The position numbers were made by a program, and so were the translations under genes. A stretch of 64,000 nt of DNA, from the NCBI GenBank assembly GCA_958295775.1, contig CATQHC010000002.1, forward strand, positions 653,663 through 717,662, read 5' to 3'. The notes under the pieces were generated by a model. The model saw only the letters and a program-made list of their open reading frames with translations. It had not been told where the DNA came from and ran no database searches. Below are positions 3,785 to 64,000 of this stretch, in pieces. Positions within the stretch are counted from its first letter, which is position 1; every line of letters starts with the position of its first letter. Source of the stretch: Chloroflexota bacterium (GTDB lineage: Bacteria > Chloroflexota > UBA11872 > VXOZ01).

Positions 3785-6322
3785 ATGCCGACTCCTTCGG
3801 AGAAGACGGTAACACTTACAGTTGACGGCCAAGAGGTAACGGTACCTGACGGCGCGACGATTCTGGATGCGGCGCGCAAGGCCGGCATCTACATACCCAC
3901 CCTGTGCTTCGATACCTTCCTCAAGCCGTACGGCGCGTGCCGCATGTGCGTGGTAGAGGTCGAACGGGCGCCAAAGCCCCTCTCCTCCTGCAACACGGCA
4001 GCCATGGAAGGCATGGTAGTCAGCACCAAAGCCGAGCCGGTGGTGCACGCCCAGCAGGGCATCATGGAAATGACTTTGCAGCACCACCCGTTGGATTGTC
4101 CCTATTGCGACAAGTCCGGCGTGTGCGATCTCCAGCACACTGCGTACGAGGTCGGCGTATACCGCAGTAAGTTGGGCAGCGATAATCCGAACGAACCCGA
4201 CCATGAGTTCAGCCCTCTAATCGAGTGGGACCCAAATCGCTGCATATATTGCGGCAAGTGTGTGCGAGTTTGCGATGAGCGTGTTGGCGACAGCGCGCTT
4301 ACCTTCAATCTGCGCGGGTTTCACAGCTACATAGGTACCCAATTCGATGAACCGCTTGACTGCGTCGAGTGCGGCGAGTGCATCGAAGTCTGTCCGGTGG
4401 GCGCGCTGCTCAGCCGACCCTTTATGCATAGCGGGCGTGCCTGGCAAGTACACCAGAGCGAGTCCGTGTGTAACCACTGCAGCGTTGGGTGCCAGTTGCA
4501 CGTTGAAACACGCATGGGTGAGGTGCTGCGCACAAAGGCCAATCCGGCGCTCCGGGACCAAACTCCGGTGAACACCAGAGATCGCGGTCCGGGAGACGGC
4601 ATGCTCTGCACACGGGGCCGCTTTGGCTACGACTACATCCATGATGACGGACGCCTGGCTCAGCCCCTCGTCCGCAGGGACGGGCAGCTTGAACCGGCAA
4701 GCTGGGACGAGGCCCTTAATTTGGTTGCAACCAAGATTTCAGAAGCAAAATCGGACCATGGCGCGGATTCGATTTCCGCAGTGACTTCAGGACGTATTTC
4801 GGACGAAGAGAATTACCTCATCTCGCGCCTCATGCGGGAAGTAGTGGGCACCAACAACATCGACAGTACCGAGCGCTGGACCTTCATTCCAACGCTTAAG
4901 GCCCTGGGTCCTGCCGCGTTCAACTTCAGCATTGCCCAGATGGAGCACATGGACGCGTACCTTGTCGTTGGCGGGGACCTCATGGAAAGCCACGATGTGC
5001 TGGGTATGCGTTTGCGGCAGTGGGTTCGCGACCAAGGGAAGCTCCTCATTCAGGCGGGCAGCCTGCCCAGCAGACAGGATGGTCGCTTCGCGAACCGGGT
5101 GCTGCGCGTACGGCCCGGCGCCGAGGTGCATCTGCTGCACGGCCTCGCCGCGGAGCTTTTACGTCAGTCCGCGGACGACAACCCTCCGGACGAATTACAG
5201 TCATATAGCTTAGAACGGTCTGCTGCCGACACCGGCATCCCAGTGGATGATCTCCGCGAAACCGCCGCACAGCTTAGACAGGCCGGCAACATCGGTATAG
5301 TGTGGGGACTTGGCAGTTGGCTGATTGGCGGCGCGGCAGGCTTGGCCCAGTCGGCAGCGAACCTTGCGCTGGCACTGCCCGGGGCAGAGCTCTTCCCATT
5401 GGCTAACAAGGCGAACTCGCGCGGCCTGGTGCAAATGGGCGCTGGCGCCGATATCTTGCCAAACTTCCGCAGCAGCGACGATGCACAGGCCCGCAGCGCG
5501 CTAGGCCGCCTGTGGGACGTGGTTCTACCGGAGTCTCAGGGCAATTCATTGGATGATCTATTGGCCGGCGCTGATGTTTCCGTGCTCTACATTGTCGGCG
5601 AAGACCTGGCTACCAGCGCCCGCAATCATGGACAGGCCGCAGCGCTTCTGCACCGGGCGCAGTTTGTGGTAGTGCAAGACCTGTTTGTCACCGAAACGGC
5701 GGCACAATACGCCGATGTCGTCTTGCCTGCCGTCAGTTTTGCCGAGAAGACCGGTACTTACACCAATTTGGAAGGTCGTACGCAACGGGCGCAAGCGGCA
5801 ATTACACCGGTGGGGGAGGCAAAACCCGATTGGCAGATCTTCTGTGAACTTGCCCTGCAGCTTGGCGCACGGTGGACCTACCGGAATCCCGATGCCGTGG
5901 CCCAAGAAATCGTAGAAGTGATGGCAGACATTCCCATTACCCATAGCGAACCGCGTTTTGGCTGGCAGGAGCTGCCGGTACTGCCAAGTGTGAACGGAGA
6001 CGGCAAGCTGCTCTTGGTGACCCAGGATCATCTCTTTGTGCCCGGTGTCACCGGACGTTATAGTAGCAACCTGCGTCGTTTGGTGGCCGAACCGGTTGCA
6101 GAATTGCACCCGGTACAGTTGGAACGCCTTGGCATCAATGACGGTGACAAAGTGGGCATTCAAGCAAACGGTGCAGACCTGACCGTAACGGCAAAGGCCA
6201 ACGATAAATTAGTCGAGGATGTAGTCTATCTTCCCGTTGGCTTCCCGGACGCGCCGGTAGGCGCATTGCTCGGCACAGAAGCCACGGTGGCTGTATCAGT
6301 GCGCGCCGCGTCCGCAGACTAG
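3785..6322 (+). CDS. nuoG: NADH-quinone oxidoreductase subunit G (75 kDa)
   Basis: N-terminal 2Fe-2S ferredoxin fold, HxxxCxxC/CxxCxxC 4Fe-4S motifs, C-terminal molybdopterin-oxidoreductase-like domain; follows nuoD with no nuoE/nuoF between. Confidence 0.9.
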   Translation: MPTPSEKTVTLTVDGQEVTVPDGATILDAARKAGIYIPTLCFDTFLKPYGACRMCVVEVERAPKPLSSCNTAAMEGMVVSTKAEPVVHAQQGIMEMTLQHHPLDCPYCDKSGVCDLQHTAYEVGVYRSKLGSDNPNEPDHEFSPLIEWDPNRCIYCGKCVRVCDERVGDSALTFNLRGFHSYIGTQFDEPLDCVECGECIEVCPVGALLSRPFMHSGRAWQVHQSESVCNHCSVGCQLHVETRMGEVLRTKANPALRDQTPVNTRDRGPGDGMLCTRGRFGYDYIHDDGRLAQPLVRRDGQLEPASWDEALNLVATKISEAKSDHGADSISAVTSGRISDEENYLISRLMREVVGTNNIDSTERWTFIPTLKALGPAAFNFSIAQMEHMDAYLVVGGDLMESHDVLGMRLRQWVRDQGKLLIQAGSLPSRQDGRFANRVLRVRPGAEVHLLHGLAAELLRQSADDNPPDELQSYSLERSAADTGIPVDDLRETAAQLRQAGNIGIVWGLGSWLIGGAAGLAQSAANLALALPGAELFPLANKANSRGLVQMGAGADILPNFRSSDDAQARSALGRLWDVVLPESQGNSLDDLLAGADVSVLYIVGEDLATSARNHGQAAALLHRAQFVVVQDLFVTETAAQYADVVLPAVSFAEKTGTYTNLEGRTQRAQAAITPVGEAKPDWQIFCELALQLGARWTYRNPDAVAQEIVEVMADIPITHSEPRFGWQELPVLPSVNGDGKLLLVTQDHLFVPGVTGRYSSNLRRLVAEPVAELHPVQLERLGINDGDKVGIQANGADLTVTAKANDKLVEDVVYLPVGFPDAPVGALLGTEATVAVSVRAASAD

Positions 6323-7381: not shown

Positions 7382-7840
7382 ATGAGTTTTCGGTTTGATT
7401 CGCTGCTGCCAATCGCAAGAGGGTTGAGTATTACCCTGCGCGAGTTCTTTCGGCAGCCCGTGACAATTCGCTATCCGGAGCAAAAACGTACCCTTTCCTC
7501 GATTTATCGCGGCGCAGTCGGCATGCGCCGCAGACCGGACGGACGGCCGAAGTGCGTCGGCTGCGGTCTGTGTGAGACCGCGTGCCCAAATGAGTGCATT
7601 ACCATCACGACTGAGTCGAATCCCGCGCAGCCGACTGACAAGGTGGTAACGTCGTACACGCTGGATGTTGGGCGCTGCCTCTTTTGCGGGCTTTGCGTTG
7701 AGGCCTGTCCGGTGGAAGCGCTGGAGATGACCGATGCCTACAATTTCTCCACCGACGACCGCAGCACACTCATCTATGATGTAGACCGCCTGATGGACTT
7801 GGTAGACAAGCAAGGCAAGGAGGTCTCAACGCTTGAATAG
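7382..7840 (+). CDS. nuoI: NADH-quinone oxidoreductase subunit I
   Basis: Two CxxCxxCxxxCP 4Fe-4S ferredoxin motifs (CVGCGLCETACP, CLFCGLCVEACP). Confidence 0.93.
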   Translation: MSFRFDSLLPIARGLSITLREFFRQPVTIRYPEQKRTLSSIYRGAVGMRRRPDGRPKCVGCGLCETACPNECITITTESNPAQPTDKVVTSYTLDVGRCLFCGLCVEACPVEALEMTDAYNFSTDDRSTLIYDVDRLMDLVDKQGKEVSTLE

Positions 7841-8456
7841 CGAGACCTTGCTCTCCCTGATCTTTGCGTATCTCGCGCTGGCGTGCGTGGCGTTTGCCGT
7901 GCTCGTAATCATGCTGCGGAATCCCGTGCAGTGTGCGCTGGCGCTGGTGGGGGTTGTCTTCCACCTGGCGGGGATCTTCATCTTGCTTCGCGCCGAGTTT
8001 CTCGCGGCGGCGCACATCATCATCTACGCCGGCGCCATCATTGTGCTCTTTCTGTTTACAATGATGCTGCTAAACCTTGGAGTGGTCGAGCGGGCACGGC
8101 AGTTTCACGTGCAGGCGCCCTTGGCGATCGTGGTTGGCGCGATCCTCTTTCTGGAATTCGTGGTGCTGACCGGCGCTACAATCACCGTTGGCGCGCAGGG
8201 AGCCCACTCGCCCGCGTGGGTTGCCGGACAGGGAGGCAACGTGCAGGCATTGGGGCAGGTGCTTTTCCGGGACTATCTGCTGCCATTTGAAATTGCCTCG
8301 GTCCTGCTGACCGCTGCCGTGGTAGGAGCAATTGTCTTGGCGAAACAGAAGCCGCGGCGGCCGCGCTCGTCCTCGCAGATGGGCGTGGGCGAGTGGATGG
8401 CAGAACGGTACGAAAAGGCAAAGACGCGCGAGCAAGACCCAGCCGAGCCGCGCTGA
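7833..8456 (+). CDS. nuoJ: NADH-quinone oxidoreductase subunit J
   Basis: 207 aa, 5 TM helices, NuoJ/ND6-like; operon position. Confidence 0.85.
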   Translation: MNSETLLSLIFAYLALACVAFAVLVIMLRNPVQCALALVGVVFHLAGIFILLRAEFLAAAHIIIYAGAIIVLFLFTMMLLNLGVVERARQFHVQAPLAIVVGAILFLEFVVLTGATITVGAQGAHSPAWVAGQGGNVQALGQVLFRDYLLPFEIASVLLTAAVVGAIVLAKQKPRRPRSSSQMGVGEWMAERYEKAKTREQDPAEPR

Positions 8457-8473
8457 GGAGGTAGGCACTGCAC

Positions 8474-8782
8474 ATGATAATCCCTGCCTTGGAGTACTAC
8501 TTGGTGCTGGGCGCGGCACTGTTCATTATCGGCCTGCTGGGCGTGCTGGTGCGGCGCAATCTGCTTATAGTGTTTATGTCAATTGAATTGATATTGCTTG
8601 GCGCAAACGTGACTTTTGTTGGTTTCGCGGTGGCCTTGAACAACATGCTCGGACAAGCGTTTGTTATTTTCTCGCTGACGGTCGCGGCTGCGGAAGCGGC
8701 AGTTGGGCTTGCCATCATCGTGGCGCTTTCGCGCCATCGGGACACGCTGAATGTCGATGAAATCGATACTCTCAAGGGGTAA
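8474..8782 (+). CDS. nuoK: NADH-quinone oxidoreductase subunit K
   Basis: 102 aa, 3 TM helices, NuoK/ND4L pattern. Confidence 0.9.
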   Translation: MIIPALEYYLVLGAALFIIGLLGVLVRRNLLIVFMSIELILLGANVTFVGFAVALNNMLGQAFVIFSLTVAAAEAAVGLAIIVALSRHRDTLNVDEIDTLKG

Positions 8783-8797
8783 GGGCGAAAGTACATA

Positions 8798-10705
8798 ATG
8801 GTCCAAGTTGCCTGGCTCATTCCGGCGTTGCCACTCATCGCATTCGCGATCAATGGCGCGCTTGGGCGTACCTACCTTAAGAAGCGCACCGGCATTATTG
8901 CGAACGCAGGTGTCTTGGGCGCCCTTGTGGTTAGTGTGCTCCTTTTCGTCGCGCAACTCGACCATGCAGAGCCCGAGACCGTTTCCCTTTGGACGTGGGC
9001 CGTTTCCGGTGATTTCGCGCTGGACATCGTGCTGCGCGTAGACGCCCTCACGCTGGTGATGCTGCTCGTCGTCACGAGCGTCTCATTCATGGTGCACGTG
9101 TACTCGATTGGGTACATGGACAATGACCCCGGCTTCTGGCGCTTCTTTACGTATCTGCCCCTCTTCGTCTTTGCGATGATTATGCTCGTGATGGCGAACA
9201 ATCTGTTGGTTCTGTTCGTGTTTTGGGAAGCCGTAGGCCTGTGTTCCTATCTGCTCATCGGCTTTTGGTTTGAGCGTCAATCCGCTTCTGCGGCCGCTGT
9301 GAAGGCCTTTCTCACAAATAGAATTGGCGACGTCGGCTTTCTCATCGGCTTGCTGCTCATCTGGCATGTCTTTGGAACGCTGAACTACGATGAAATCTTC
9401 AGTTTGGCGCCGGTAGTTGAAGCTGCGCGGCCCGGTATACTCACTCTGATCTGTCTCATGTTATTCGTAGGAGCCATGGGCAAGTCTGCCCAGTTCCCGC
9501 TGCACGTGTGGCTGCCCGACGCGATGGAGGGCCCGACGCCCGTGAGCGCCTTGATTCACGCCGCAACCATGGTGACCGCAGGCGTTTACATGGTGGCGCG
9601 GTTCAATCCGCTCTACGTGCTCTCTTCGACCGCGATGACGGTGGTGGCACTTGTCGGCGCCTTCACCGCCCTGTTTGCCGCAACCATCGGCCTGACGCAG
9701 AACGACATTAAGCGTGTATTGGCATACTCGACTGTTAGTCAGCTTGGACTTATGTTCATGGCGCTCGGCGTAGGCGCCTTTACCGCAGCCATCTTTCACT
9801 TGGCGACTCACGCCTTCTTCAAGGGCCTCCTCTTCCTGGGTTCCGGCTCCGTGATTCATGGCACGGACGAGGAACAGGATATGCAACGTATGGGCGGTCT
9901 CTTTGGCAAAATGCCCGTTACCGGCGCCACCTACATCATCGGCGGCCTCGCGCTTTCCGGCATCATTCCGTTGGCGGGATTCTGGAGCAAGGATGAACTG
10001 CTGGGAGCCACGTTACTCTCAGGTGATCTTGGTTACCTTCTCTTTGTCCTGGGCGCGCTGGCGTCCCTCCTCACCGCCGTCTACACGTTCCGCATGATTT
10101 TCCTCACCTTCTTCGGCAAGACGCGAATGGCGGCTGAGAGATTCTCCCATGTTCACGAATCGCCGCGGGTAATGACCGTGCCGCTCATTGTGCTTGCAGT
10201 GGGCGCGGTGGGCGCGGGTTTTGTTGGCGTGCCCCCGGAGCATGGCTTGATCCACAATTACCTCCACGATACGTTCCTGGCGGCCGAATTTGCCGGCTTG
10301 GTCCACGTGCCGTCGACGGTGTTTGTACTCGCGCTGATGGCGGTTTCAACGGTTATTGCCCTGTTGGGGATCCTTGTCGCCTACGGCATCTTCATGCGCA
10401 GGTCGCCGGCCCCTGAGTCCGTTGCGGGCTTAGCGCCGCCTCTCCATGCGCTATTGGTCAACAAATACTATCTGGACGACTTTTATGATGCGGTGTTAGC
10501 AGGTGGAACGCGGACCGCAGGCGGGCTCTTTGCCTGGTTCGACCTCAACATCGTGGACGGTGTCGTCAACCTCATTGGGCTTGTTGTCAGAGGCGTTGGC
10601 GGCGGCCTCCGCCGCATGCAGACCGGCCGCCTGGAAAACTATGCCTTTAGCGTTGCTCTGGGGACTGCGCTTGTCTTGGCTTTCTATATCATGATGGCGC
10701 GCTGA
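8798..10705 (+). CDS. nuoL: NADH-quinone oxidoreductase subunit L
   Basis: 635 aa antiporter-like subunit with WLPDAMEGPTPVSALIHAATMV motif. Confidence 0.93.
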   Translation: MVQVAWLIPALPLIAFAINGALGRTYLKKRTGIIANAGVLGALVVSVLLFVAQLDHAEPETVSLWTWAVSGDFALDIVLRVDALTLVMLLVVTSVSFMVHVYSIGYMDNDPGFWRFFTYLPLFVFAMIMLVMANNLLVLFVFWEAVGLCSYLLIGFWFERQSASAAAVKAFLTNRIGDVGFLIGLLLIWHVFGTLNYDEIFSLAPVVEAARPGILTLICLMLFVGAMGKSAQFPLHVWLPDAMEGPTPVSALIHAATMVTAGVYMVARFNPLYVLSSTAMTVVALVGAFTALFAATIGLTQNDIKRVLAYSTVSQLGLMFMALGVGAFTAAIFHLATHAFFKGLLFLGSGSVIHGTDEEQDMQRMGGLFGKMPVTGATYIIGGLALSGIIPLAGFWSKDELLGATLLSGDLGYLLFVLGALASLLTAVYTFRMIFLTFFGKTRMAAERFSHVHESPRVMTVPLIVLAVGAVGAGFVGVPPEHGLIHNYLHDTFLAAEFAGLVHVPSTVFVLALMAVSTVIALLGILVAYGIFMRRSPAPESVAGLAPPLHALLVNKYYLDDFYDAVLAGGTRTAGGLFAWFDLNIVDGVVNLIGLVVRGVGGGLRRMQTGRLENYAFSVALGTALVLAFYIMMAR

Positions 10706-46607: not shown

Positions 46608-47411
46608 CTAGAAACTAGCAGTATTTGGGAGATCCACTCGAACCTTCTCGATAAGCGAAAGCAATTCCGAATAGGTGTTGGGCCCGCCAATGTAGTCCCA
46701 TAGCTCGCTGCCAATTAAGACCTGCTTCTCCATGTCCATTATTTGTTTTGTAAATGAGTGCCCATAGCGATCCCGCGTCACGTAAGGGTTATAGGTCAGG
46801 CCCAGATACGCCCTGGATCTATCGATTCCTCGTCTGTTCATTATGGTCAAGTAATACAGCAGCTTTCTCTTAGACTCTGCAGCAACATCCAGATTAGGGA
46901 GAGGACTCTTCAACTCAACAAGCAAGGGCCCTTGTTCAAAGTCATCTATGTATAGGTCGGCAGTTACCGATCTATTTGACTGTCCACCACCACGCGAATA
47001 AAGGATGTCTCCCATCTCGCCCTCATGGTCAGGTCTTCTCGGAGACTCCCGTTGAGATTGAGGCGTCCGGAGCTCGGTCACAATCTGCTCGATCATATTT
47101 ATAGCTGCATCGTTTACAGTGCCTTCAACAACGTGCTCCGTGTGAACACTCTTGAATCGACCAAACGCAACGGCTTTGGCCAGAGCTGGGTAAAGCCTCG
47201 TGCCCATCGATGTCACAACACTCCGCTCAACCCTGGCCGCCAAGATTGCTTCTTCAGGAAAGAAAATCTGGTGGAACGGATATCCGAGTCTTATGTCTTC
47301 GATCGTCCACTTGCTCAGTTTGGGAATCTGACTTGCAGCAAACTCCCTTAGGACACCAAAGACAGCGTCTCTTGTCGTGGAATTCAACCCTACTATCCTT
47401 TTGCCGCCCAA
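46608..47411 (-). CDS. Putative type II restriction endonuclease (PD-(D/E)xK-like), low GC
   Basis: 267 aa, D...(E)LK core (DLYIDDFEQGPLLVELKS); immediately downstream of and overlapping a DNA methyltransferase gene; GC ~50% versus ~62% flanks. Confidence 0.6.
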   Translation of the reverse strand: MGGKRIVGLNSTTRDAVFGVLREFAASQIPKLSKWTIEDIRLGYPFHQIFFPEEAILAARVERSVVTSMGTRLYPALAKAVAFGRFKSVHTEHVVEGTVNDAAINMIEQIVTELRTPQSQRESPRRPDHEGEMGDILYSRGGGQSNRSVTADLYIDDFEQGPLLVELKSPLPNLDVAAESKRKLLYYLTIMNRRGIDRSRAYLGLTYNPYVTRDRYGHSFTKQIMDMEKQVLIGSELWDYIGGPNTYSELLSLIEKVRVDLPNTASF

Positions 47412-48619
47412 ATCAGAACGCTCTCGAAGAAATCTCCAGCCCTTCTTCCCGTCCTTCTGTTTACGTGTCTCTCAAGCCTAGTCTCAAGAGACACTCCAAT
47501 TTGCTCCTGGACTGTCTCGTAGAGACCATACTTGTCGTTGACGATAACCACCATTCGACCGTCTTTGGAGAGGCTCCTCTTGACATTCTCAAACGACTCG
47601 ATCATCTTTTTGACGTACTCAGCTTGCGCTCTCTGCGAGCTTCCATTCGTGGCTGGACCAATCTCCTCCTCAGCCTTCCACTCTAGACCCAGCAACTCGT
47701 ATGCATACCTATGTTGCTCATGATAGTCAATAAGCCCCACATATGGTGGCGAGGTGACTACAAGGTCGTACTTTGGGAACTGGGCTCTTCTCGTGTCGTC
47801 AGTAGCTATGAGTGTGGCCACATTTTTGCGAACATCAGCAAACTCACGAATTCGTTTGAGTGTATCGTTGCTATATCGTTTCAAAAACTGTGCAGAGTTT
47901 TTTGTTGGTCTGCAGGTTCGGCTATGTTTATAGCAGTAATAGGGTTCAGTTTGAGGCTGCTTTGGAAAGTCGAGGTCAAAATGCGTTGTAAGGCGCGCCG
48001 ACCTGGCTGCCCTTGATAAGATCACCCTGAGGACGTCACTGTAAGTGTAATCTTCAATGTGCTTCCGGTATGCTAGCAACGAACCTAGTGCTTGAGGCGC
48101 AAACCACGACTGTAGGTAGTCACTCACGTTATACTCGGCTTTTTGTTCAAGCAACGAGAGTTGGTTAGTGCCAAGCGCCCTCTTCAACGCATCGTTAATC
48201 TCATACTCAAGTAGACTTAGGTCGTACTTGCCTGTCTTTACTCGGGTCATTAGGGTGTTGAATTCGGAAATATCACACCCTATCGCATTTATCCCTAGCG
48301 ACGCCGCTTCAACCAAGGTTGTGCCCGAGCCGCAAAATGGATCACAGACCGTTGTAGGCTCAAATTTGCGTAGGAATATCTCGACCAACTGGGGAACGAA
48401 CTTTCCAAGATAGGGATGAAGGCGATGGACATGTTTCGTCCGAATTCGCTCCGGCAAGTCGCTTTCGCGCCAGTTGAGATTGAGGACTTCTAGCTTCGTA
48501 CTTGACCTAACTGAATCGAACGCGGTGAACGGGTCCGTTTGATAATCGGGATCGTACCCATATGACCTGTCGGCGCCAAGAGGTGATGTAGATGAGAGAT
48601 TGGTCTTGGTCTGCTTCAT
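47393..48619 (-). CDS. Site-specific DNA methyltransferase (N4-C or N6-A, amino-MTase)
   Basis: Motif I DPFCGSGTT and motif IV SPPY; low GC; start chosen at MKQTKT (ATGA overlap with the upstream stop); longer alternative starts at 48655. Confidence 0.8.
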   Translation of the reverse strand: MKQTKTNLSSTSPLGADRSYGYDPDYQTDPFTAFDSVRSSTKLEVLNLNWRESDLPERIRTKHVHRLHPYLGKFVPQLVEIFLRKFEPTTVCDPFCGSGTTLVEAASLGINAIGCDISEFNTLMTRVKTGKYDLSLLEYEINDALKRALGTNQLSLLEQKAEYNVSDYLQSWFAPQALGSLLAYRKHIEDYTYSDVLRVILSRAARSARLTTHFDLDFPKQPQTEPYYCYKHSRTCRPTKNSAQFLKRYSNDTLKRIREFADVRKNVATLIATDDTRRAQFPKYDLVVTSPPYVGLIDYHEQHRYAYELLGLEWKAEEEIGPATNGSSQRAQAEYVKKMIESFENVKRSLSKDGRMVVIVNDKYGLYETVQEQIGVSLETRLERHVNRRTGRRAGDFFESVLIWAAKG

Positions 48620-49797
48620 AGAGAAACAGTAACCCATCCGAGTTCTTCCCGCCAATTCGGCGCAACGTCGCCGAACCTATCCATGCGCAATCCGCTTATG
48701 TCAACGCTCGTATCGCCGTGGAGCGCCAATTCGCTCACGACCCTGCCTGTGGCGCCTGCGATGGCGAAGCCATGGGCCGACGCGGAGACAAACACAAAGT
48801 TGCTCGGATTGTCGAGGATGTCAATGATTGGCAGGGAGTCCGGTGCCTGTTCTATCACGCCGGCCCAGCTCCGGATTACCGGCACGTCCGCCACCCCTGG
48901 GAACAAGTCTGCCAGCCGCCTGGCTATGTTTCGAATGAGCGGCGTGTTGGGCTTGCTGGGATCGGAGGTCAGATCCACATCGATCCATTCGTGGGGCCCC
49001 CCTCCATAGAGCAGGTTGCCCTTCTTAGCCTGGCGCCCGTAGAGTCCGTTTCCCACCAGGGCGAATTGAAAGAGTGGCTCTAAGGGAGCGGTGGCAATAA
49101 TCTCTGCCCGTGCCGTTGCGAGCGGAACGCGCACGCCCACCATCTCTAAAAACAACGCAGTTTGCGGTCCGGCAGCACATACAACCGTGTCGGTCTCAAT
49201 GGCGCCGGCGGTCGTCTCAACCGCTGAGACCCTCTCGCCGGCGAGCTTGAAACCCGTGGCGGCGGTATGCTGGTAGAGCTTGCCGCCCCGGTCTTGAAAG
49301 GCCCAGGCAAATGCCTGGACTGATCGTTGAGGGTTCGCGTGCGCGCCCTTCGGGAAAAAGATCCCGCCGAGCGATCTATCGGTGACGTACGGCGCCATGT
49401 CCTTGATTTCGGATGGGTCCAACACGTCCACTTGTACGCCGAAACGTTCCCCTACCTCTCGTTCGGTCAGGTAGCGGTCCATTTCCGGTTCGGATACGGC
49501 TATTTGGAGCCTGCCTGCTTGCACGAACTCAGTGGGATAGCCCAGCTCATCGTCCAGCATCTCCCATAGTTTCACAGACTCCACCGCCAACGGCACCAAA
49601 GCCGGCTCGTCAGTTCGCTCGCTGATCATCCCGCCGTTGCGCCCGGAAGCCTCGGCTCCGACGACACTCTTCTCGACGACGACGACATCCTTGCCCGCCT
49701 TGGCCAGATAATAGGCTGTGCTGAGGCCCGAAATGCCACCGCCAATGACGACTACGTCTGCTCTGTTGCTAGGCATGCTGCCACTCCGCTGATCCAC
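48616..49797 (-). CDS. FAD-dependent oxidoreductase, sarcosine-oxidase-beta / HcnC / OoxB-like
   Basis: VVIGGGISG dinucleotide motif, DAO-family architecture, ~390 aa. Confidence 0.8.
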   Translation of the reverse strand: MDQRSGSMPSNRADVVVIGGGISGLSTAYYLAKAGKDVVVVEKSVVGAEASGRNGGMISERTDEPALVPLAVESVKLWEMLDDELGYPTEFVQAGRLQIAVSEPEMDRYLTEREVGERFGVQVDVLDPSEIKDMAPYVTDRSLGGIFFPKGAHANPQRSVQAFAWAFQDRGGKLYQHTAATGFKLAGERVSAVETTAGAIETDTVVCAAGPQTALFLEMVGVRVPLATARAEIIATAPLEPLFQFALVGNGLYGRQAKKGNLLYGGGPHEWIDVDLTSDPSKPNTPLIRNIARRLADLFPGVADVPVIRSWAGVIEQAPDSLPIIDILDNPSNFVFVSASAHGFAIAGATGRVVSELALHGDTSVDISGLRMDRFGDVAPNWREELGWVTVSL

Positions 49798-56043: not shown

Positions 56044-57579
<1,536 letters not shown>

Positions 57580-58073: not shown

Positions 58074-58150
58074 GGGCCACTAGCTCAGTTGGTTAGAGCG
58101 CGCCCCTGATAAGGGCGAGGTCTGTGGTTCAAATCCACAGTGGCCCACCA
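58074..58150 (+). tRNA. tRNA-Ile (anticodon GAT)
   Basis: GGGCCAC acceptor, anticodon loop CTGATAA, T-arm, encoded CCA; in the spacer 3' of 16S. Confidence 0.9.
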
Positions 58151-58361
58151 CGACGGCAGCCATACAACCGCCTCTCAGCATGCGCGCCGCAGGCCGAACC
58201 GGGTACTTGGAGAGAGACTTCACCAGGCAACCATTGCGGCATTTGCCTGCAAACCCTTAGGGATTGTTGGAAGATTCAATCCAATTGCCCACCGACATGC
58301 GCGTACCTTGGGCATATTGGTGTGCACCCAGGCGCATGGCAGGCTCTGTGCTGCTAGTCAC

Positions 58362-58437
58362 GGGGATGTAGCTCAGTTGGGAGAGCACCTCCTTTGCAAG
58401 GAGGGGGTCAGGAGTTCGAGTCTCCTCATCTCCACCA
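58362..58437 (+). tRNA. tRNA-Ala (anticodon TGC)
   Basis: GGGGATG acceptor with the G3-U70 identity pair, anticodon loop TTTGCAA, encoded CCA. Confidence 0.9.
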
Positions 58438-58510
58438 TTTTAGATTTGAGACCAGATGAGTATCGAACTCCCCCGCAGCTATAGTGGTCGTCCCGATTGG
58501 GAGGAAGCGC

Positions 58511-58957
58511 ATGAAGCAGATTGCTGACATTGCCGTATATTCGCCGGATGACCGGTTGAAACTCATCGTCGAGGTCAAGAACTACAGGAACGCGACCGAC
58601 GAATGGGCTGCCAAACTGCGGAGGAACCTGTTAGTCGATGGGTTCATCCCAGCCTCGGAGTTTTTCCTACTGGTTTTACCAGAGCATTCTTACCTCTGGC
58701 GAAGGTGCGAATCTATTGATGCGGTTCCGGCGGACTACAAGCTTTCTACTAAAGACGTGCTGCAACTTCGTGGAGACTCAGCCAACCCAGACAAACTGAG
58801 CTCTTTCAGTTTGGAGTTGTTGACCAGTTCTTGGCTAAACGCGCTGGCTGTTTCCCAAGTAACCAGAGGGGAGGTGCCAGAATTGGAATGGATATTTGAA
58901 TCGGGCCTTTATGACAGTGTCAAGGACGGCTTGGTCAAGATTGAATCGGAGCTGTGA
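58511..58957 (+). CDS. Small PD-(D/E)xK-like (Hjc/Mrr-type core) nuclease-fold protein, low GC
   Basis: ATG with a strong GGGAGGA RBS 5 nt upstream; N-terminus IADIAVYSPDDRLKLIVEVK matches the D-h-h-A...h-h-E-V-K restriction-endonuclease-like core; GC ~50%. Confidence 0.5.
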   Translation: MKQIADIAVYSPDDRLKLIVEVKNYRNATDEWAAKLRRNLLVDGFIPASEFFLLVLPEHSYLWRRCESIDAVPADYKLSTKDVLQLRGDSANPDKLSSFSLELLTSSWLNALAVSQVTRGEVPELEWIFESGLYDSVKDGLVKIESEL

Positions 58958-59559
58958 TTGTCTTTATTGAATCCAACTTCGTGCTGGAACTGGCTCTCCT
59001 CCAAGAGGAACATCGGAGTTGCGATTCCATCCTTAGCCTTGCGGAGTCCCTGACTATTGATTTGGCAATACCGGCCTTCAGCTTGTTCGAGCCTTACGAG
59101 GTGTGGCGGCGGCGTACAAGGGAGCGGGCCGAGTTGCATGGACGCCTCAATCGGGAAATGAGCCAGTTGGCACGTACGGAGCCATACGCCAAAACCGTTG
59201 AGGACTTGGCGGATCCAGCGTCGATTCTGTTACGGAGTGGAAATGAGGACAAGCGCAGGTTGGATCTAACTATTGGTAGGATTCTCGACTGCGCCGAAAT
59301 GATACCTCTCCAAGGAAAAACTCTCAGGGACGCCATCCATTTCCAGGGATCCCTAGACCTTTCCCCACAGGATTCGGTTGTGTACGCCTCGGTGATGGCC
59401 CACCTGTCGGCCGCTTCACCTGGCCCCAAGTGTTTTCTGAACAGAGACCGTAAAGACTTCTCAATACCGGATATCAGGGAGGAATTAGGGCGAAATGACT
59501 GTCAACTAATCGCTAGGTTTGCCGGGGGCCTCAGCTACATAAACTCGCTGCAGGCCTGA
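58954..59559 (+). CDS. PIN-like domain protein (tentative), translationally coupled to the upstream ORF
   Basis: GTGA start/stop overlap; N-terminal strand MIVFIESNFVLE (PIN beta1-like with E for D) and C-terminal FLNRDRKDF resembling the PIN T-x-N-x-KDF terminal motif; low GC. Confidence 0.35.
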   Translation: MIVFIESNFVLELALLQEEHRSCDSILSLAESLTIDLAIPAFSLFEPYEVWRRRTRERAELHGRLNREMSQLARTEPYAKTVEDLADPASILLRSGNEDKRRLDLTIGRILDCAEMIPLQGKTLRDAIHFQGSLDLSPQDSVVYASVMAHLSAASPGPKCFLNRDRKDFSIPDIREELGRNDCQLIARFAGGLSYINSLQA

Positions 59560-59579
59560 CATACGCCATAACCGTTCAT

Positions 59580-59900
59580 GTGCCAGTCCCACCAAACTGG
59601 GATCCTTATATCTGGACTATCCACCGAAGACTTCGAAATACGGTGCACTCATCTCCACCAGATTTTACGAATTCTAGAACCTTCACCTTGGAGTTCTTTC
59701 GGAACCTGTATAGATTGCGTGGCGATCTTCCGAGCCCCGGCCACATGAAAAAGAATCCAGTGTCGTCCAACGAGTATGGACTTTACAAAGAGACCATTGG
59801 GAAGTGCTTCCCGGACCTTGTCGTGGACTCCATCAAACTGGCCAGTGAAGGATTGGATGACCTGGCTCTGGCCACCTACGATGAGTTGGTATTCCGGTAG
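59580..59900 (+). CDS. Hypothetical protein (106 aa), low GC
   Basis: ORF in the same low-GC block as the two preceding genes; no recognisable motif. Confidence 0.35.
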   Translation: MPVPPNWDPYIWTIHRRLRNTVHSSPPDFTNSRTFTLEFFRNLYRLRGDLPSPGHMKKNPVSSNEYGLYKETIGKCFPDLVVDSIKLASEGLDDLALATYDELVFR

Positions 59901-60106
59901 CCAAATCTTGACTAAGCCGTCTCCAATATTGAGCTTGAGGCAACCTTGCTGTGCCCGGGTTGCTAGAGAGGCTCGACGTACGTATACCGCCCCCAGAGTT
60001 GTATGGATCGCTGCGTAGTTGCTGCCCGGGTCGTCTTGGAAGTTCACCCACTCGACTGTCGCGGCTTCTCTTTTCCAAACCGCCAAAGTATGCGAGTATA
60101 TTCGCC

Positions 60107-61219
60107 ATGCTAAATCTCCCTCATGCCGATGTCGTTGGGAGCTTGATACGACCGCCGGAGCTGCTCGTCGCGCGCGAGGAATTTGCGGCCGGGCTAATCT
60201 CGCCCGCGGCATTCAAGCGCACCGAGGACGCCGCTGTCGATAGCGCCGTTGCTGCTCAGGAGGACTCCGGACTTGAAATCCTCACCGACGGCGAAATGCG
60301 CCGGCTCTCGTTTCAGAGTCAGATGCCCGAGGCAGTCGCAGGCTTTGGCGAGTTCGATATCGACGCGTTCCTCTGGGGCGATTGGCAGGGCGACGAACGG
60401 GTAGGAGACTCGCGCACGGAGCGTCCCGCGACTTTGGGTGTCGTCGGCCGCCTCCAGCGGAAGCGCCACCTGTCGGCGGAGGAGTTCACCTACCTGCGCG
60501 GCCGCACCACGCGCAGAGCAAAGGTGACATTGCCGAGCCCCAGCCTGTTCGCCAACTTCTGGTCGCCGGTGCAGTCCGCCGCAGCCTACCCCACCCTGGA
60601 TGCGTTTTTGGCTGATGTAGCGGCGATAGTCCGTGGGGAGATCGAAGAGCTAGTCAGGCTTGGGGCGACGTATATTCAACTCGACGCTCCGCACTATCCG
60701 CTCGTGCTAGATCCGGCATGGGCGGCCTTCTACGAGGCCCAGGGCTCGTCTGCGGAGGACTGGATCGCCCAAGGTGTCGAACTGGACAACGCCGTGATGG
60801 ACGGTTTCTCGGAAGTTATATTCGCGGTCCATCTCTGTCGAGGGAACCAGGGCGGTCGTTGGCTGGTCGCAGGCAGTTACGACCGGATTGTCGAGCCGGT
60901 TCTCCAGCGCATAAACGCGCAGCGGCTGATGCTGGAGTACGACGATCCACGCTCAGGCTCGTTCGAGCCTCTGCGCGGCGTGCCCGACGACAAGCTCGTG
61001 GGGCTGGGGCTGGTTACGACCAAGTCACCGCGCGCGGAGGACGTAGCCGAGCTTGAATCTCGGATCGCCGAGGCTGCCCGCCACTTCCCCCTGGAGCAAC
61101 TCGCCATCAGTCCGCAGTGCGGGTTCGCATCATCCATCGTCGGCAATCCGCTTTCGATCGAGCAGCAAAACGCAAAACTCCGCATCGTCGCCGAGACCGC
61201 CCGCCACGTTTGGGGATAA
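60107..61219 (+). CDS. Cobalamin-independent methionine synthase (MetE) catalytic-domain-like protein, short stand-alone form
   Basis: ~370 aa; MetE C-terminal-domain pattern incl. zinc ligands H-x-C (AVHLCRG), Glu and Cys (ISPQCGF). Confidence 0.7.
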   Translation: MLNLPHADVVGSLIRPPELLVAREEFAAGLISPAAFKRTEDAAVDSAVAAQEDSGLEILTDGEMRRLSFQSQMPEAVAGFGEFDIDAFLWGDWQGDERVGDSRTERPATLGVVGRLQRKRHLSAEEFTYLRGRTTRRAKVTLPSPSLFANFWSPVQSAAAYPTLDAFLADVAAIVRGEIEELVRLGATYIQLDAPHYPLVLDPAWAAFYEAQGSSAEDWIAQGVELDNAVMDGFSEVIFAVHLCRGNQGGRWLVAGSYDRIVEPVLQRINAQRLMLEYDDPRSGSFEPLRGVPDDKLVGLGLVTTKSPRAEDVAELESRIAEAARHFPLEQLAISPQCGFASSIVGNPLSIEQQNAKLRIVAETARHVWG

Positions 61220-61458
61220 TCTTTCCCGTCATGCTTGCCAGCGACTCACAGAGTGTCCCTGCCTCGGTGCCGTAACGCGGGCTGGTTAGCGACCTCCCCC
61301 TACGTGACCCATAGTTTCTTGAACTCCCAATCAGAGCGGAGCAATGAAATATACTCGTTCGGTACACCCCGCCTTCTACTCTTCGCACTCTGGTATTGAA
61401 TTGATTCATGCAGCGCTGGCATTCAATAACCAATGCCCTGATATTCTTGCCGCCGTAC

Positions 61459-61534
61459 GGAGATGTAGCCCGGTTGGGAGAGAACCTCCTTTGCAAGGAG
61501 AGGGGCAAGAGGTCGTGTCTCCTCAACTCCACCC
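61459..61534 (+). pseudogene. Degenerate copy of tRNA-Ala (pseudo-tRNA / att-like remnant)
   Basis: Aligns over ~76 nt with tRNA-Ala at 58362-58437 (same anticodon arm CCTCCTTTGCAAGGAG) but has mismatches in the D-, T- and acceptor stems and loses T54. Confidence 0.7.
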
Positions 61535-61789
61535 ACTCGCACCTCCGACCCGGAGGCTTGTAGTACCAACTTCACTGAAACATTGGGGACACCAGCTATG
61601 GGATTCCGGTGATCTGGGCAATGCGCGCGCACGGACCGCCGACTTCTACAAGCAGGACGTATCCGTCGAGGTTGACCTACCCTTTCGCCGCGGACATCCT
61701 GCCTCACACTCCCTTACCTAATCGATACTGCTGGCAACGCACTGGAGTTCTACGACACCATCTCCTGGTGGGATGACTTCAACCGCCTC

Positions 61790-62331: not shown

Positions 62332-63342
62332 GTGGCAAAGTTCAAGATAGTGGCCTGGGGCCGCCCCAATGCGCCTCGCGACTACACATTCGAGATGGAG
62401 TCATTGCGGGGCGTAGCTGCCGAAATTGTGGAAGTCACGGCAGCATCAGACGATGAGTTCCTGGAAAAGGCCCAGGACGCCGACGCGCTTTTAGTGAGCG
62501 GACATGCGCTTTCGGAAAAGGTGATCAATGGCCTCACGCAGTGCAAGATTATCGCGTTGGACAGCGTGGGCACCAATCACGTCGCCGTCTCGGCGGCTAC
62601 AGCCAAGGGTATCCCGGTAACCAATTGCCCCGATATCAATATCCAGGAGGTCGCAGAGCACACGGCGGCGCTCATCCTGGCCGCCCACCGCCGGCTGCTT
62701 ACTTTGGACAAGATGGTCAGGGATGGATACTGGTGGGAAGGGCATGCGCCTATGCGTCAGTTGCCGCGCTTGTACGGACAGACCCTTGGGTTTGTCTCGT
62801 TTGGCAATATCCCCAGGGCCGTCGTGCCTTTGATGAAACCTTTCGGCCTCCGTATCCTCGCCTACGATCCCTTTGTCATGGAGACCACAATGATTCAGTT
62901 TGGAGTGGAGCCGGTAGACTTGAAGGAGCTCTTGCGGCGGTCCGACATCGTTGCAAACCATCTGCCCGGATCCGCAGGCACGACCAAGCTGATTGGGGAA
63001 GAGCAATTCAGGCTAATGAAGCCCGAGGCGATTTTCGTAAACACGGGCCGGGGCACGACCGTGGACGAGGCGGCGATGATCCGGGCGCTGAATGAAGGAT
63101 GGATAGCGCACGCTGCGCTGGACGTGCTGGAAAAGGAACCGCCTGATCCCGACAATCCCCTGTTCGCAATGGAGAACGTCACACTCACGCCCCACGCAGC
63201 CTCCGCATCATCCAGAGTCTTGGAGGTGAGCAAGCGTCGTATGGGCATGGAAATCGCCTTGGTGTTGGGAGGCCGCCGGCCAATGTCCTGCGTCAATCCG
63301 TCGGCGCTGGACAACTCCGGCCTGCTGAAGTGGCAGGTCTAG
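62332..63342 (+). CDS. D-isomer-specific 2-hydroxyacid dehydrogenase (CtBP/PGDH-like)
   Basis: NAD-binding fold and catalytic R/E/H pattern of the 2-hydroxyacid dehydrogenase family. Confidence 0.8.
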   Translation: MAKFKIVAWGRPNAPRDYTFEMESLRGVAAEIVEVTAASDDEFLEKAQDADALLVSGHALSEKVINGLTQCKIIALDSVGTNHVAVSAATAKGIPVTNCPDINIQEVAEHTAALILAAHRRLLTLDKMVRDGYWWEGHAPMRQLPRLYGQTLGFVSFGNIPRAVVPLMKPFGLRILAYDPFVMETTMIQFGVEPVDLKELLRRSDIVANHLPGSAGTTKLIGEEQFRLMKPEAIFVNTGRGTTVDEAAMIRALNEGWIAHAALDVLEKEPPDPDNPLFAMENVTLTPHAASASSRVLEVSKRRMGMEIALVLGGRRPMSCVNPSALDNSGLLKWQV

Positions 63343-63433: not shown

Positions 63434-64000
63434 ATGAATGTGCTGGAGGCGATCGCCAAAATCCTGAAGTTGGAAGGCGTGGAATGGGTCTCATGCTACC
63501 CTTCCAACGAGCTCATCGAAGCGGTAGCTAAAGAAGGCATCCGCACCATCATGTTCAGGCAGGAACGTGGTGCGATCATGGCCGCCGATGGGTACAGCCG
63601 CGTCAATAACCGGCAGAAATTCGGTGTGGTCATCACCCAGGGAGGCCCCGGTGCGGAAAACTCGATGGGCGGCATCGCCCAGGCGTTTGCTGATAGTATT
63701 CCCATTTTGTACCTTACTGCCGGCCCGCATTTGAGCCGATACGCCGTGCGGCCGGACTTTTCCCCGGTTCGCACCTATCAGAGCGTTTCCAAACATGGCG
63801 AAGTCATCATGGATCCCGGTCAGGTTGCCAGCACAATGCGCCGGGCGTTTCATGCCCTCCGAAACGGGACTCCCGGCCCGGTGATAGTCGAAGTCCCCTT
63901 TGATATGGATGATCAGGTTGTCCCTGAGGAGACGGCGCACTATCAACCGCCCCGCAGGTCCCCGCAACATCCGTCAAGCAACGATGTCAAGGAAGCGGCC
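63434..64000 (+). CDS. Thiamine-pyrophosphate-dependent enzyme (acetolactate-synthase-like), 5' partial, runs off window end
   Basis: AAGGAGA RBS then MNVLEAI...; TPP-enzyme N-terminal domain pattern (GVVITQGGPGAEN); no stop before window end. Confidence 0.75.
   Translation, partial: MNVLEAIAKILKLEGVEWVSCYPSNELIEAVAKEGIRTIMFRQERGAIMAADGYSRVNNRQKFGVVITQGGPGAENSMGGIAQAFADSIPILYLTAGPHLSRYAVRPDFSPVRTYQSVSKHGEVIMDPGQVASTMRRAFHALRNGTPGPVIVEVPFDMDDQVVPEETAHYQPPRRSPQHPSSNDVKEAA

Follow-up and report, generated by a model that had tools for sequence, protein, structure and literature searches.

Organization of the locus

The window analysed here is a stretch of 64,000 nt, and all stranded features described below lie on its + strand. 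It contains a 16S–tRNA-Ile–tRNA-Ala cluster that opens with a 16S rRNA gene (56045–57579; Rfam SSU_rRNA_bacteria, 1429.6 bits). This is followed by an intact tRNA-Ile(GAT) (58074–58150; found by ARAGORN, Rfam 69.5 bits), a long Ile–Ala spacer of 211 nt (58151–58361) and a functional tRNA-Ala(TGC) that we call Ala1 (58362–58437; Rfam 69.4 bits), whose 3′ end is the integration target. No LSU match was obtained with Rfam for a 23S rRNA gene anywhere in the window, including the 6.4 kb remaining after the cluster. Downstream of Ala1 lie an islet of low GC content, a short filler, a block carrying a MetE-like gene, a remnant of a second Ile–Ala spacer and a second full-length tRNA-Ala copy, Ala2 (61459–61534). 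The pre-insertion flank of the tRNA-Ala follows at 61535–61609 (ACTCGCACC...CCAGCTATGGGATTCCGG), and a 2-hydroxyacid dehydrogenase gene (62332–63342; Pfam 2-Hacid_dh_C, E 9.5e-56) provides a host anchor.

The comparison set consists of 12 related Chloroflexota loci (L-numbers), with syntenic loci fetched by a genome scan using the dehydrogenase gene as anchor. The sequence of Ala1 is invariant across all 12 loci, except for its last base in L015. The spacer that precedes it occurs in long (~213–217 nt), short (~55 nt) and 90-nt versions, and the version differs even where the 16S sequences of the hosts are 99.9% identical (L007 versus L009). The long spacers of the window and of L008 are 78% identical, and the 16S sequences of these two hosts are 99.5% identical. 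The flank at 61535–61609 is shared with L010, L018 and a displaced fragment of L011 (9039–9126), and L015 retains only its distal motif.

The second tRNA-Ala copy is a pseudogene

Ala2 aligns with Ala1 without gaps and is identical at 65 of 76 positions, as expected from the original prediction, which described it as a mutated tRNA-Ala. The 11 substitutions are G3A, T12C, A14G, C25A, G43A, T47G, G50A, T54G, A58T, T68A and A76C. A 16-nt core, CCTCCTTTGCAAGGAG, occurs twice in the 64 kb, in Ala1 and Ala2 only (0.04 occurrences expected). The stem mismatches and the loss of T54 claimed earlier are also present: T54 is replaced by G, and the pairs 5–68, 10–25, 12–23, 27–43 and 50–64 are broken, affecting all four stems. 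The anticodon arm had been called identical, and it is so from position 27 to 42; G43A breaks the 27–43 pair. Ala2 has lost the G3:U70 identity pair expected of a functional tRNA-Ala, and with it the conserved bases A14, T54 and A58. The Rfam tRNA model, with a threshold of 29 bits, gave no match to Ala2 even when a 401-nt stretch was searched at E ≤ 10, compared with 69.4 bits for Ala1, and the copy has no cloverleaf fold (MFE z-score +0.49). Ala2 is a non-functional tRNA-Ala relic.

ARAGORN reports a ‘tRNA-Cys(gca)’ at 61459–61533. This is a false positive in which the TGC anticodon loop is read one base frame-shifted, and the real object behind the odd annotation is a dead tRNA-Ala.

Among the relatives, the second copies score 57.3, 56.1, 49.8, 47.7 and 44.4 bits with Rfam. 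L018 keeps just the 3′ half of Ala2, and the closest relatives, L008 and L009, lack it. The lesions are lineage-specific, and decay has been independent in each lineage. The ARAGORN call, together with scores in relatives that exceed the 29-bit threshold, would suit a second copy that works as a redundant tRNA-Ala or as a tRNA-Cys. This reading has almost no probability left, given that the window copy has no Rfam match at E ≤ 10 and no stable cloverleaf, that five of its stem pairs are broken and A14, T54, A58 and G3:U70 are gone, and that L008 and L009 have deleted it. The original prediction had named relatives with two functional copies as the observation that would speak against an integration scar; what the relatives hold is a second copy at 44–57 bits, against 69.4 for the first, with lineage-specific lesions and deleted in the closest genomes.

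An inner islet bounded by its own repeat

The islet (58438–59660; 1223 bp, GC 0.52) is bounded by a 13-bp direct repeat, CTCATCTCCACCA, that corresponds to tRNA positions 64–76. The left copy is the 3′ end of Ala1 (58425–58437), and the right copy (59648–59660) forms an attR-like islet end and is the sole further occurrence in 64 kb at ≤1 mismatch (0.11 expected). The boundaries given by the repeat coincide with the drop in GC content. The adjoining filler (59661–59990; 330 bp, no strand assigned) has a GC content of 0.51, compared with 0.61 for the MetE block and 0.576 for the window, in agreement with the earlier claim that only the first part of the region is compositionally foreign. That claim had set the foreign part within a single tRNA bracket and had missed the islet's own repeat. 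The similarity proposed between the flanks of the two tRNA copies (cagctatagtgg versus cagctatggg) is coincidental: the motifs lie at different offsets after the tRNA (40 versus 60 nt) and no alignment of the flanks is obtained. In relatives, the downstream motif, CCAGCTATGGGATTCCGG, is part of the conserved host flank, and the upstream motif belongs to the islet, with which it is conserved in L045 and L046.

Two genes occupy the islet, which contains no recombinase. ORF1 (58511–58957) encodes a small PD-(D/E)xK-nuclease-like protein of 148 aa, and ORF2 (58954–59559) encodes a 201-aa protein with a PIN_12 domain (Pfam PF16289, E 5.3e-08); the start of ORF2 overlaps the stop of ORF1 (GTGA). The pair is kept together in 59 of 60 metagenome loci and has no match in PADLOC or PHROGs. 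Distant relatives of the module are not found beside tRNAs (0 of 46 loci), so the module is cargo and not the insertion agent. The function of this widespread gene pair becomes a testable question.

L045 carries the islet at 95% identity, with an identical right repeat and junction, and its 16S-region alignment is just ~88% identical. L046 has a copy that is 84% identical and lies behind a different tRNA-like sequence. Neither an islet-specific empty site nor a circular form was found, and a metagenome pattern scan gave 0 matches. With att-like repeats at its flanks and no genes for recombination or transfer, the islet fits the structure of a cis-mobilizable element (CIME). The filler contains no credible gene and is homologous to L045 alone, the remaining relatives holding different sequence at this position; it is possibly the remnant of an older insert.

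The MetE block and the outer cassette

The MetE block (59991–61409) comprises the MetE-like gene, preceded by a 116-nt leader and followed by a non-coding tail of ~190 nt, and is syntenic in L008–L013, L017, L018 and L045 (84–90% nucleotide identity). The gene (60107–61219) encodes a 370-aa member of the catalytic-domain family of cobalamin-independent methionine synthase (Pfam PF01717, E 5.9e-18); matches to NCBIfam PRK06520 and PRK06233 are below the cut-offs of these models. Between the block and Ala2 lies a 49-nt remnant of a short-type Ile–Ala spacer (61410–61458). In L010–L013 and L017, Ala2 is preceded by the short spacer and, before it, a tRNA-Ile 3′ fragment of ~25 nt, which the window lacks (39 gapped alignment columns). 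The exact core of this fragment, CAGTGGCCCACCA, is 13 nt long and has the register of positions 64–76, as in the tRNA-Ala repeats. The spacer before Ala2 is of one uniform short type, 84–97% identical between genomes.

Integration at a tRNA ordinarily leaves a 3′ fragment alone. The attL/attR-like pattern that had been proposed here stands insofar as the target tRNA is repeated; the repeat is a complete 76-nt copy, with spacer and tRNA-Ile fragment in relatives, and is not an ordinary attL/attR pair. The presence of all of Ala2, the short spacer and the tRNA-Ile fragment in relatives suggests that the element carried a whole tRNA-Ala together with a piece of rRNA spacer. The uniform spacer before Ala2, set against the variable one before Ala1, and the extent of the low-divergence segment described below support an element-borne origin of Ala2.

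The MetE and Ala2 block is common to at least six species and is neither private nor recent. A segment of low divergence starts directly behind the CCA of Ala1 and stops where Ala2 ends. L010 and L011–L013 are 96–97% identical within the block and 77–79% identical past it. For distant genome pairs, the dS of the MetE block is 2.5–4 times below that of the flanking dehydrogenase gene; L009 and L011 differ by a dS of 0.14 in MetE and 0.72 in the dehydrogenase. The order is reversed between the window and L008 (0.21 for MetE, 0.12 for the dehydrogenase). The MetE block has a history separate from that of the host genes, and its divergence does not track theirs.

A TGT codon at 60836–60838 specifies Cys244 of a His-x-Cys motif in the MetE-like protein. 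In 7 of 8 aligned orthologues, the orthologous codon is an in-frame TGA, which likely encodes selenocysteine. Downstream of the TGA, dN/dS is mostly 0.1–0.3, with values up to 0.55 for the closest pairs, in line with purifying selection on this part of the ORF. A hairpin, considered as a possible SECIS element, begins 27 nt past the U of the UGA and shows almost no covariation. A role of selenocysteine as a metal ligand in the MetE-like enzyme becomes a testable question.

Empty sites and other islands in related genomes

The comparison with empty sites suggested by the original prediction identified unoccupied versions of the outer cassette site and of the slot after Ala1. Only one tRNA-Ala is present in L014 and in L015, both of which lack the MetE gene and represent the empty site of the outer cassette. 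In L011 the slot after Ala1 is empty, and the MetE block begins after only 186 bp. The islands of L009 and L010 terminate in degenerate pieces of the tRNA-Ala 3′ end (...CCACCA), and the flank that comes next, TCCCGA..CAA, directly adjoins the tRNA in L011. A 6.3-kb island follows Ala2 in L011; it encodes a methylase and an ATPase, includes an IS element, and lies between CTCATCTCCACCA and CTCATCTCCACCC, behind which the old flank resumes. Both tRNA-Ala 3′ ends also host other islands in the relatives, and repeats of the tRNA 3′ end form their borders. What follows Ala1 is a hypervariable slot, whose cargo is often of defence type. Related soil Chloroflexota thus reuse the tRNA-Ala site for small gene cassettes, and the locus is a nested integration hotspot. 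The single tRNA-Ala of L014 and L015, the empty slot of L011 and the repeat-bounded islands bear out the proposal of a tRNA integration footprint with a composite history.

As had been noted from the sequence, no integrase or transposase lies between the two tRNA copies: Pfam, NCBIfam, PADLOC and PHROGs identified no recombinase among the window ORFs of 58438–61458. No integrase was found among the tested island ORFs of L007–L013, L017 and L018, or in the precomputed gene calls of L045 and L046, where the sole recombinase is a 157-aa resolvase fragment in L045.

Origin of the two-copy arrangement

The repeats, the pseudogene state of Ala2, the synteny, the empty sites and a divergence incongruent with the hosts are direct observations. 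The explanation that we favour, with moderate confidence, is that Ala2 is the distal boundary of a small cassette without an integrase that was inserted at the tRNA-Ala of the cluster, by circle capture followed by accretion. A circular element would have borne the MetE-like gene together with a complete tRNA-Ala, a short Ile–Ala spacer and a tRNA-Ile 3′ fragment of ~25 nt. The tRNA-Ala, spacer and tRNA-Ile fragment would have been captured from the rRNA spacer of an earlier host, probably by aberrant excision in which the 3′ end of tRNA-Ile served as secondary site. This capture, the circular intermediate and the nature of the acting enzyme are inferences. The circle would then have recombined Campbell-fashion inside the host tRNA-Ala, giving the order of a host-derived, working Ala1, the cassette, an element-derived, redundant Ala2 and the old host flank. 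Ala2 would have decayed since insertion because it was redundant. Later elements would have entered the 3′ end of Ala1 and displaced the older cassette downstream by accretion; in the window this later element would be the 1.2-kb islet. The recombinase may act in trans or may have been lost. The block was probably spread and reshuffled between related species by homologous recombination, with the identical 16S and tRNA sequences as regions of exchange.

The spacer distribution provides an argument against this explanation: the unoccupied L014 and L015 both have the short spacer and all long-spacer genomes are occupied, as expected if the long spacer and Ala1 arrived with the element. In that event, the element would have entered the T-loop/3′ end of tRNA-Ile, bringing along a substitute 3′ end for tRNA-Ile as well as the long spacer and Ala1, followed by the variable slot and the MetE gene, and Ala2 would be the displaced original tRNA-Ala of the host, with its short spacer and a tRNA-Ile 3′ fragment. 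We regard this scenario as unlikely. The CAGTGGCCCACCA fragment precedes the short spacer and Ala2 in L010–L013 and L017, and its register at positions 64–76 would also suit a direct crossover in tRNA-Ile. L015 is collinear with the proposed starting state (Ile, short spacer, Ala and the same distal flank motif), both unoccupied genomes (2 of 2) are of the short-spacer type, and the long spacer varies independently of host relatedness, as in its 78% identity between the window and L008. However, the occupied short-spacer genomes L009, L018 and L045 are not simply derived in this way, and the spacer is highly variable before Ala1 and uniform before Ala2, the reverse of what entry at tRNA-Ile predicts. 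In addition, the block that L009 or L010 shares with L011 begins just past the CCA of Ala1, and L009 and L011 have different Ala1 spacer types. With insertion at tRNA-Ala retained as the favoured explanation, the 78% spacer identity between near-identical hosts indicates that the exchanged unit may extend to the left of Ala1.

Two other origins fare less well. A local tandem duplication of the tRNA-Ile 3′ end, spacer and tRNA-Ala, with the MetE gene and islets inserted between the copies afterwards, would give a full-length copy that includes upstream spacer sequence; the original prediction had raised a local duplication as an alternative. In L011, with its empty slot, what follows Ala1 (TCCCGACTC...) bears no relation to the Ala2 flank (ACTCGCACC...), so the duplication must have stopped exactly at the CCA and the MetE segment must have landed exactly at that junction. 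The low, host-incongruent divergence of the block is also unexplained, and we consider a duplication improbable. The order of tRNA-Ile fragment, spacer and tRNA-Ala resembles an rRNA spacer, and Ala2 and the fragment could in principle be the remains of a second, mostly deleted 16S–Ile–Ala cluster. This is more doubtful still, and very improbable: the ~210-nt tail upstream of the fragment resembles the 16S 3′ end, the 16S–Ile spacer and the 5′ part of tRNA-Ile no more than shuffled controls do, no second 16S or intact second tRNA-Ile accompanies Ala2 in the related loci examined, and the homology break falls in the T arm, a typical att position.

The two tRNA-Ala copies, with identical 16S and tRNA-Ile sequences, might also constitute an integrase-free exchange platform. 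Homologous recombination between Ala1 and Ala2 would free a circle with a full tRNA-Ala, which could re-insert Campbell-fashion, by a RecA-type reaction, at the identical tRNA-Ala of related genomes. We offer this only tentatively, as an unlikely route. If it applied, the Sec/Cys MetE-like gene and the defence cassettes could move across genera, and the lack of linkage between 16S and 23S rRNA genes would make the site permissive.

Relation to known integration systems

The locus is a new example of a known process, the integration of mobile DNA at a tRNA. It resembles the genomic islands in tRNA and tmRNA genes defined by the Islander database (PMC4383910) in that the target tRNA is intact on one side and its 3′ part recurs, displaced and here in direct orientation, on the far side. 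Absence of the insert from related genomes, atypical composition of the inner islet and a crossover region at tRNA positions 64–76 are further likenesses. In contrast to such islands, the locus has no integrase, its outer copy spans all 76 nt of the tRNA and is preceded by rRNA-spacer sequence, in place of a mere 3′ fragment, and the target is a spacer tRNA behind a 16S rRNA gene.

The ssrA islands of Dehalococcoides (PMC3146451) belong to the same phylum, and many of them lack an integration module and have been read as cis-mobilizable elements gained by accretion. Both systems are strain-variable hotspots, with tandem islands downstream of one conserved RNA gene and direct repeats derived from the 3′ end of that gene (20 bp in Dehalococcoides, 13 bp in the present locus). 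They differ in target (tmRNA versus tRNA-Ala) and in cargo (reductive dehalogenases versus MetE-like and defence-type genes). The serine-recombinase module (DsiB, DsiA) is frequent in Dehalococcoides, whereas here there is only the 157-aa resolvase fragment of L045, and Pfam identified no DsiB/CcrB-like large serine recombinase module beside attL in the window region. As in the CIMEs and site-specific accretion reviewed in PMC5704250, att-like repeats occur without recombination or transfer genes, and newer elements are stacked beside older ones at one target. The present case differs in that no mobilising neighbour element was identified.

A parallel for the proposed capture is specialised transduction by phage lambda, in which flanking host DNA (gal or bio) is captured by aberrant excision. 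The element appears to hold a comparable att-adjacent piece of a former host, namely the tRNA-Ile 3′ end, spacer and tRNA-Ala. Unlike lambda, the locus contains no phage and no excision machinery, and the capture is deduced from sequence comparison. The locus illustrates in detail how islands accrete and decay where no integrase is resident. Spacer tRNAs behind 16S can be a reusable integration site when a 23S gene does not follow, a use considered uncommon for tRNAs that lie within rRNA operons. The 13-nt 3′ end of tRNA-Ala is a natural, defined landing pad in uncultured soil Chloroflexota.

The rRNA–tRNA cluster and the second tRNA-Ala copy

The window contains, in this order, a 16S rRNA gene (56045–57579), tRNA-Ile(GAT) (58074–58150) and a working tRNA-Ala(TGC) (Ala1, 58362–58437), all identified with ARAGORN and Rfam. 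With the same tools, 23S and 5S genes are absent behind this cluster up to position 64000. The rRNA genes of the window are therefore unlinked, which is probably the reason that insertions behind the spacer tRNAs are tolerated. The 16S sequence reads CCTACGGGGTTTAGCATGAAGG in seven of seven clade genes and CCTACGGGAGGCAGCAGTGGGG in most bacteria. At the normally universal 16S region 341–357, the window (56395–56419) has CCTACGGGGTTTAGCATGAAGGAAT instead of CCTACGGGAGGCAGCAGTGGGGAAT, as do L007, L008, L009, L013, L015 and L045 (L-numbers designate related loci in other genomes or metagenomes), and the clade sharing this alteration is probably under-amplified by 341F-type primers.

The original prediction of a mutated tRNA-Ala copy at 61459–61534 (Ala2) is borne out by an ungapped match to Ala1 at 65 of 76 bases. 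The 16-nt core of the Ala2 anticodon arm occurs nowhere else in the window beyond the two copies (0.04 expected). Ala2 is a non-working tRNA: it does not match the Rfam tRNA model even at E ≤ 10, forms no stable cloverleaf (z = +0.49), has lost G3:U70, A14, T54 and A58, and contains at least one broken pair in every stem. A ‘tRNA-Cys’ called at this position by ARAGORN is a frame-shifted misreading and was rejected. Ala2 is preceded by a 49-nt spacer remnant (61410–61458) in which the tRNA-Ile fragment found in relatives is missing, with 39 gapped alignment columns. Similarity between the flanks of the two copies had also been proposed, and proves to be coincidental. The flank 3′ of Ala2, ACTCGCACC...CCAGCTATGGGATTCCGG, is common to the window, L010, L018 and a displaced fragment of L011; L015 retains its distal motif alone.

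Conservation of the MetE block and fate of the second copy

The closest homologues of the MetE-like protein by protein search (L001–L003) lie in unrelated contexts with no nearby tRNA-Ala, and first suggested an absence of synteny. This impression was overturned by a genome scan anchored on the downstream 2-hydroxyacid dehydrogenase gene (62332–63342), which recovered the true syntenic orthologues from complete Chloroflexota MAG chromosomes where the dehydrogenase is syntenic with 16S–tRNA-Ile–tRNA-Ala. Identity of 16S to the window is 99.5% for L008, 97% for L009 and L007, 94% for L013 and 93% for L015. The MetE block (59991–61409 in the window) occupies the same site in L008–L013, L017, L018 and L045, with 84–90% nucleotide identity. 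The insert is absent from some related genomes, a comparison that the original prediction had called for: L014 and L015 have one tRNA-Ala and no MetE gene.

Most of the occupied relatives carry a second tRNA-Ala copy behind the block, scoring 57.3 bits in L010, 56.1 in L017 (with a mutated anticodon loop), 49.8 in L012, 47.7 in L013 and 44.4 in L011, where it is a hybrid. Only the 3′ half is left in L018, and the same ~240-nt segment including the copy is gone from L008 and L009, with a methyltransferase island in its place. These lineage-specific lesions indicate relaxed selection on a redundant copy. A short (about 55-nt) Ile–Ala spacer precedes the second copy in L010–L013 and L017, and before it lies a ~25-nt tRNA-Ile 3′ fragment with an exact 13-nt core (CAGTGGCCCACCA, positions 64–76).

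The L017 copy (4621–4696, 56 bits) keeps G3:U70, and its anticodon loop now reads GTA (Tyr); it is a pseudogene or, if expressed, a tRNA that may mistranslate. The methyltransferase island encodes a 275-aa methyltransferase-domain protein and is 85–95% identical among three hosts of unequal relatedness (L008 8092–8919, L009 8761–9588 and L013 8093–8920). It lies directly after Ala2 in L013 and replaces Ala2 in L008 and L009.

Origin of the duplicated tRNA

In distant pairs, the MetE gene shows 2.5–4-fold less synonymous divergence than the flanking dehydrogenase (dS 0.14 versus 0.72 for L009 and L011); in the closest pair, the window and L008, the MetE value is the higher (0.21 versus 0.12). 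Non-coding parts of the block are 82–97% identical across genomes, compared with 77–85% for host flanks between distant pairs, and between L010 and L011–L013 the high-identity block opens immediately behind the Ala1 CCA and closes with Ala2. The block has therefore undergone exchange or recombination between these species.

We propose that a circular element carrying a whole tRNA-Ala and a captured piece of rRNA spacer inserted Campbell-type at tRNA-Ala. Ala1 would then be host-derived, which fits the variable spacers in front of it, and Ala2 would be element-derived, which fits its uniform preceding spacer and low divergence; the flank behind Ala2 would again be host-derived. Insertion into tRNA-Ile is the chief alternative. 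In its favor are the register in which the tRNA-Ile fragment sits, the collinearity of L015, the short spacers of both unoccupied genomes and the long (about 211–217-nt) Ile–Ala spacer being only 78% identical between the window and L008. Campbell-type insertion at tRNA-Ala accommodates the occupied genomes that have short spacers (L009, L018 and L045). Three other explanations are less well supported. One is that the segment was duplicated locally. Another is a second rRNA cluster that has decayed, in which case the sequence upstream of the tRNA-Ile fragment might resemble 16S, spacer or the tRNA-Ile 5′ part but does not do so above shuffled controls. The third is a functional second tRNA, against which stands the missing Rfam match of Ala2.

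No integrase was found for the proposed insertion at tRNA-Ala, and the stretch between the copies contains no recombinase, as originally noted. The structure agrees with the general logic of tRNA-targeted islands (PMC4383910). Within the same phylum, the ssrA islands of Dehalococcoides, which occur in tandem and often lack an integrase, are a particularly close parallel (PMC3146451). The locus is set apart by its target, by its full-length duplicated tRNA with a captured spacer and by having no recombinase module. It is a fresh instance of an already-known island type.

The MetE-like gene

The MetE-like gene (60107–61219, 370 aa, PF01717) is followed by a non-coding tail. Its Cys244 (TGT, 60836–60838) belongs to a His-x-Cys motif, the Cys of which we take to be a zinc ligand in MetE enzymes. 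The aligned codon is TGA in seven of eight orthologues (L009 8124, L010 7112, L011 1980, L012 6003, L013 7214, L017 3960 and L018 2932); L008 has TGT, as in the window. In the TGA orthologues the rest of the ORF is 89–92% identical, dN/dS downstream of the TGA is mostly 0.1–0.3 (up to 0.55 in the closest pairs), and a conserved hairpin lies 27 nt past the UGA. The L045 gene appears as two calls (243 and 109 aa) split near the Cys244 position. From these sequence features, the gene looks like a MetE-family Sec/Cys pair. A 2026 review that tabulates the selenoprotein families of prokaryotes has no entry for PF01717, and we found no described MetE-family selenoprotein in the literature searched.

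The islet and the tRNA-Ala hotspot

The original prediction recognized a compositionally foreign islet behind Ala1, and its low GC content (0.52, compared with 0.61 for the MetE block) upholds this, but the islet's own att-like repeat had been overlooked. The last 13 nt of tRNA-Ala (CTCATCTCCACCA, 58425–58437) recur exactly at 59648–59660, ~90 nt past the ORF2 stop and as the sole additional copy within 64 kb, and so bound the low-GC segment. The islet encodes ORF1 (148 aa, true start at 58511) and ORF2 (PIN_12, 58954–59559), which overlap by GTGA as one unit, and is followed by 330 bp of filler with no credible gene. A metagenome scan for the empty site (tRNA-Ala 3′ end followed by post-islet flank) gave no matches, and exact-protein look-up returned no record for the MetE-like and PIN_12 proteins or a 100%-identical neighbor, P0121.

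The islet recurs in L045 with 95% identity and the same right repeat, although the 16S regions of L045 and the window align at only about 88%. L046 has an 84%-identical copy behind a different degenerate tRNA-like sequence. L045 also has a ~210-nt insert (8675–8884), which the window lacks, downstream of the ORF2 stop and ahead of the right repeat; with its long inverted repeat (ATTCTGAGGAGCGCAGCGACGAAGAATCTAGA...TCTAGATTCCTCGCTGCGCTCGGAATGAC), this insert is reminiscent of a miniature inverted-repeat element.

The ORF1–ORF2 pair (58511–59559; 7558–8606 in both L045 and L046) also occurs in metagenome loci L047–L126, and the overlapping genes are kept together in 59 of 60 loci among distant metagenome relatives. 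A tRNA adjoins the pair in none of 46 metagenome loci scanned; a tRNA association of the module itself was therefore rejected, and the pair is cargo rather than the inserting agent. ORF1 is a small PD-(D/E)xK-like protein with conserved D6, E21 and K23. Its family comprises 813 representatives, and its alignment is too divergent to serve as a metagenome query. The ORF1 model is confident (pLDDT 91), with a predicted core that weakly resembles restriction nucleases. Neither PADLOC nor PHROGs includes the pair, and no ORF2 relatives were found in viral contigs; the pair is a candidate for an uncharacterized toxin–antitoxin or defense module. A supposed kinship of ORF1 with a 157-aa ORF of L013 was rejected for lack of similarity.

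The tRNA-Ala site is a hotspot, and the content of the slot directly behind Ala1 varies by genome. The slot is empty in L011 (186 bp) and holds the ORF1/PIN_12 islet in the window and L045, a PD-T4-4-like AAA_15 ATPase in L008, L012 and L013, a HepT-like protein in L009, nitrile hydratase in L018, a Cache sensor in L017, P450, cytochrome c and flavin oxidoreductase genes in L010, and HATPase_c_3, ParB_N and SNF2 genes in L007. Each of the L009 and L010 islands closes with a degenerate 3′ fragment of tRNA-Ala, beyond which comes the exact flank found behind the tRNA in the empty L011. At the Ala2 3′ end, L011 carries a 6.3-kb methylase/ATPase/IS island with the same 13-nt core repeated. Another variable slot lies at 46608–48655 (minus strand), where the window has a 267-aa ORF and a 420-aa ORF with DPFCGSGTT and TSPPY motifs, typical of N4/N6 DNA methyltransferases; the syntenic segment of L004 (9058–10754) has GmrSD_N and GmrSD_C genes in their place.
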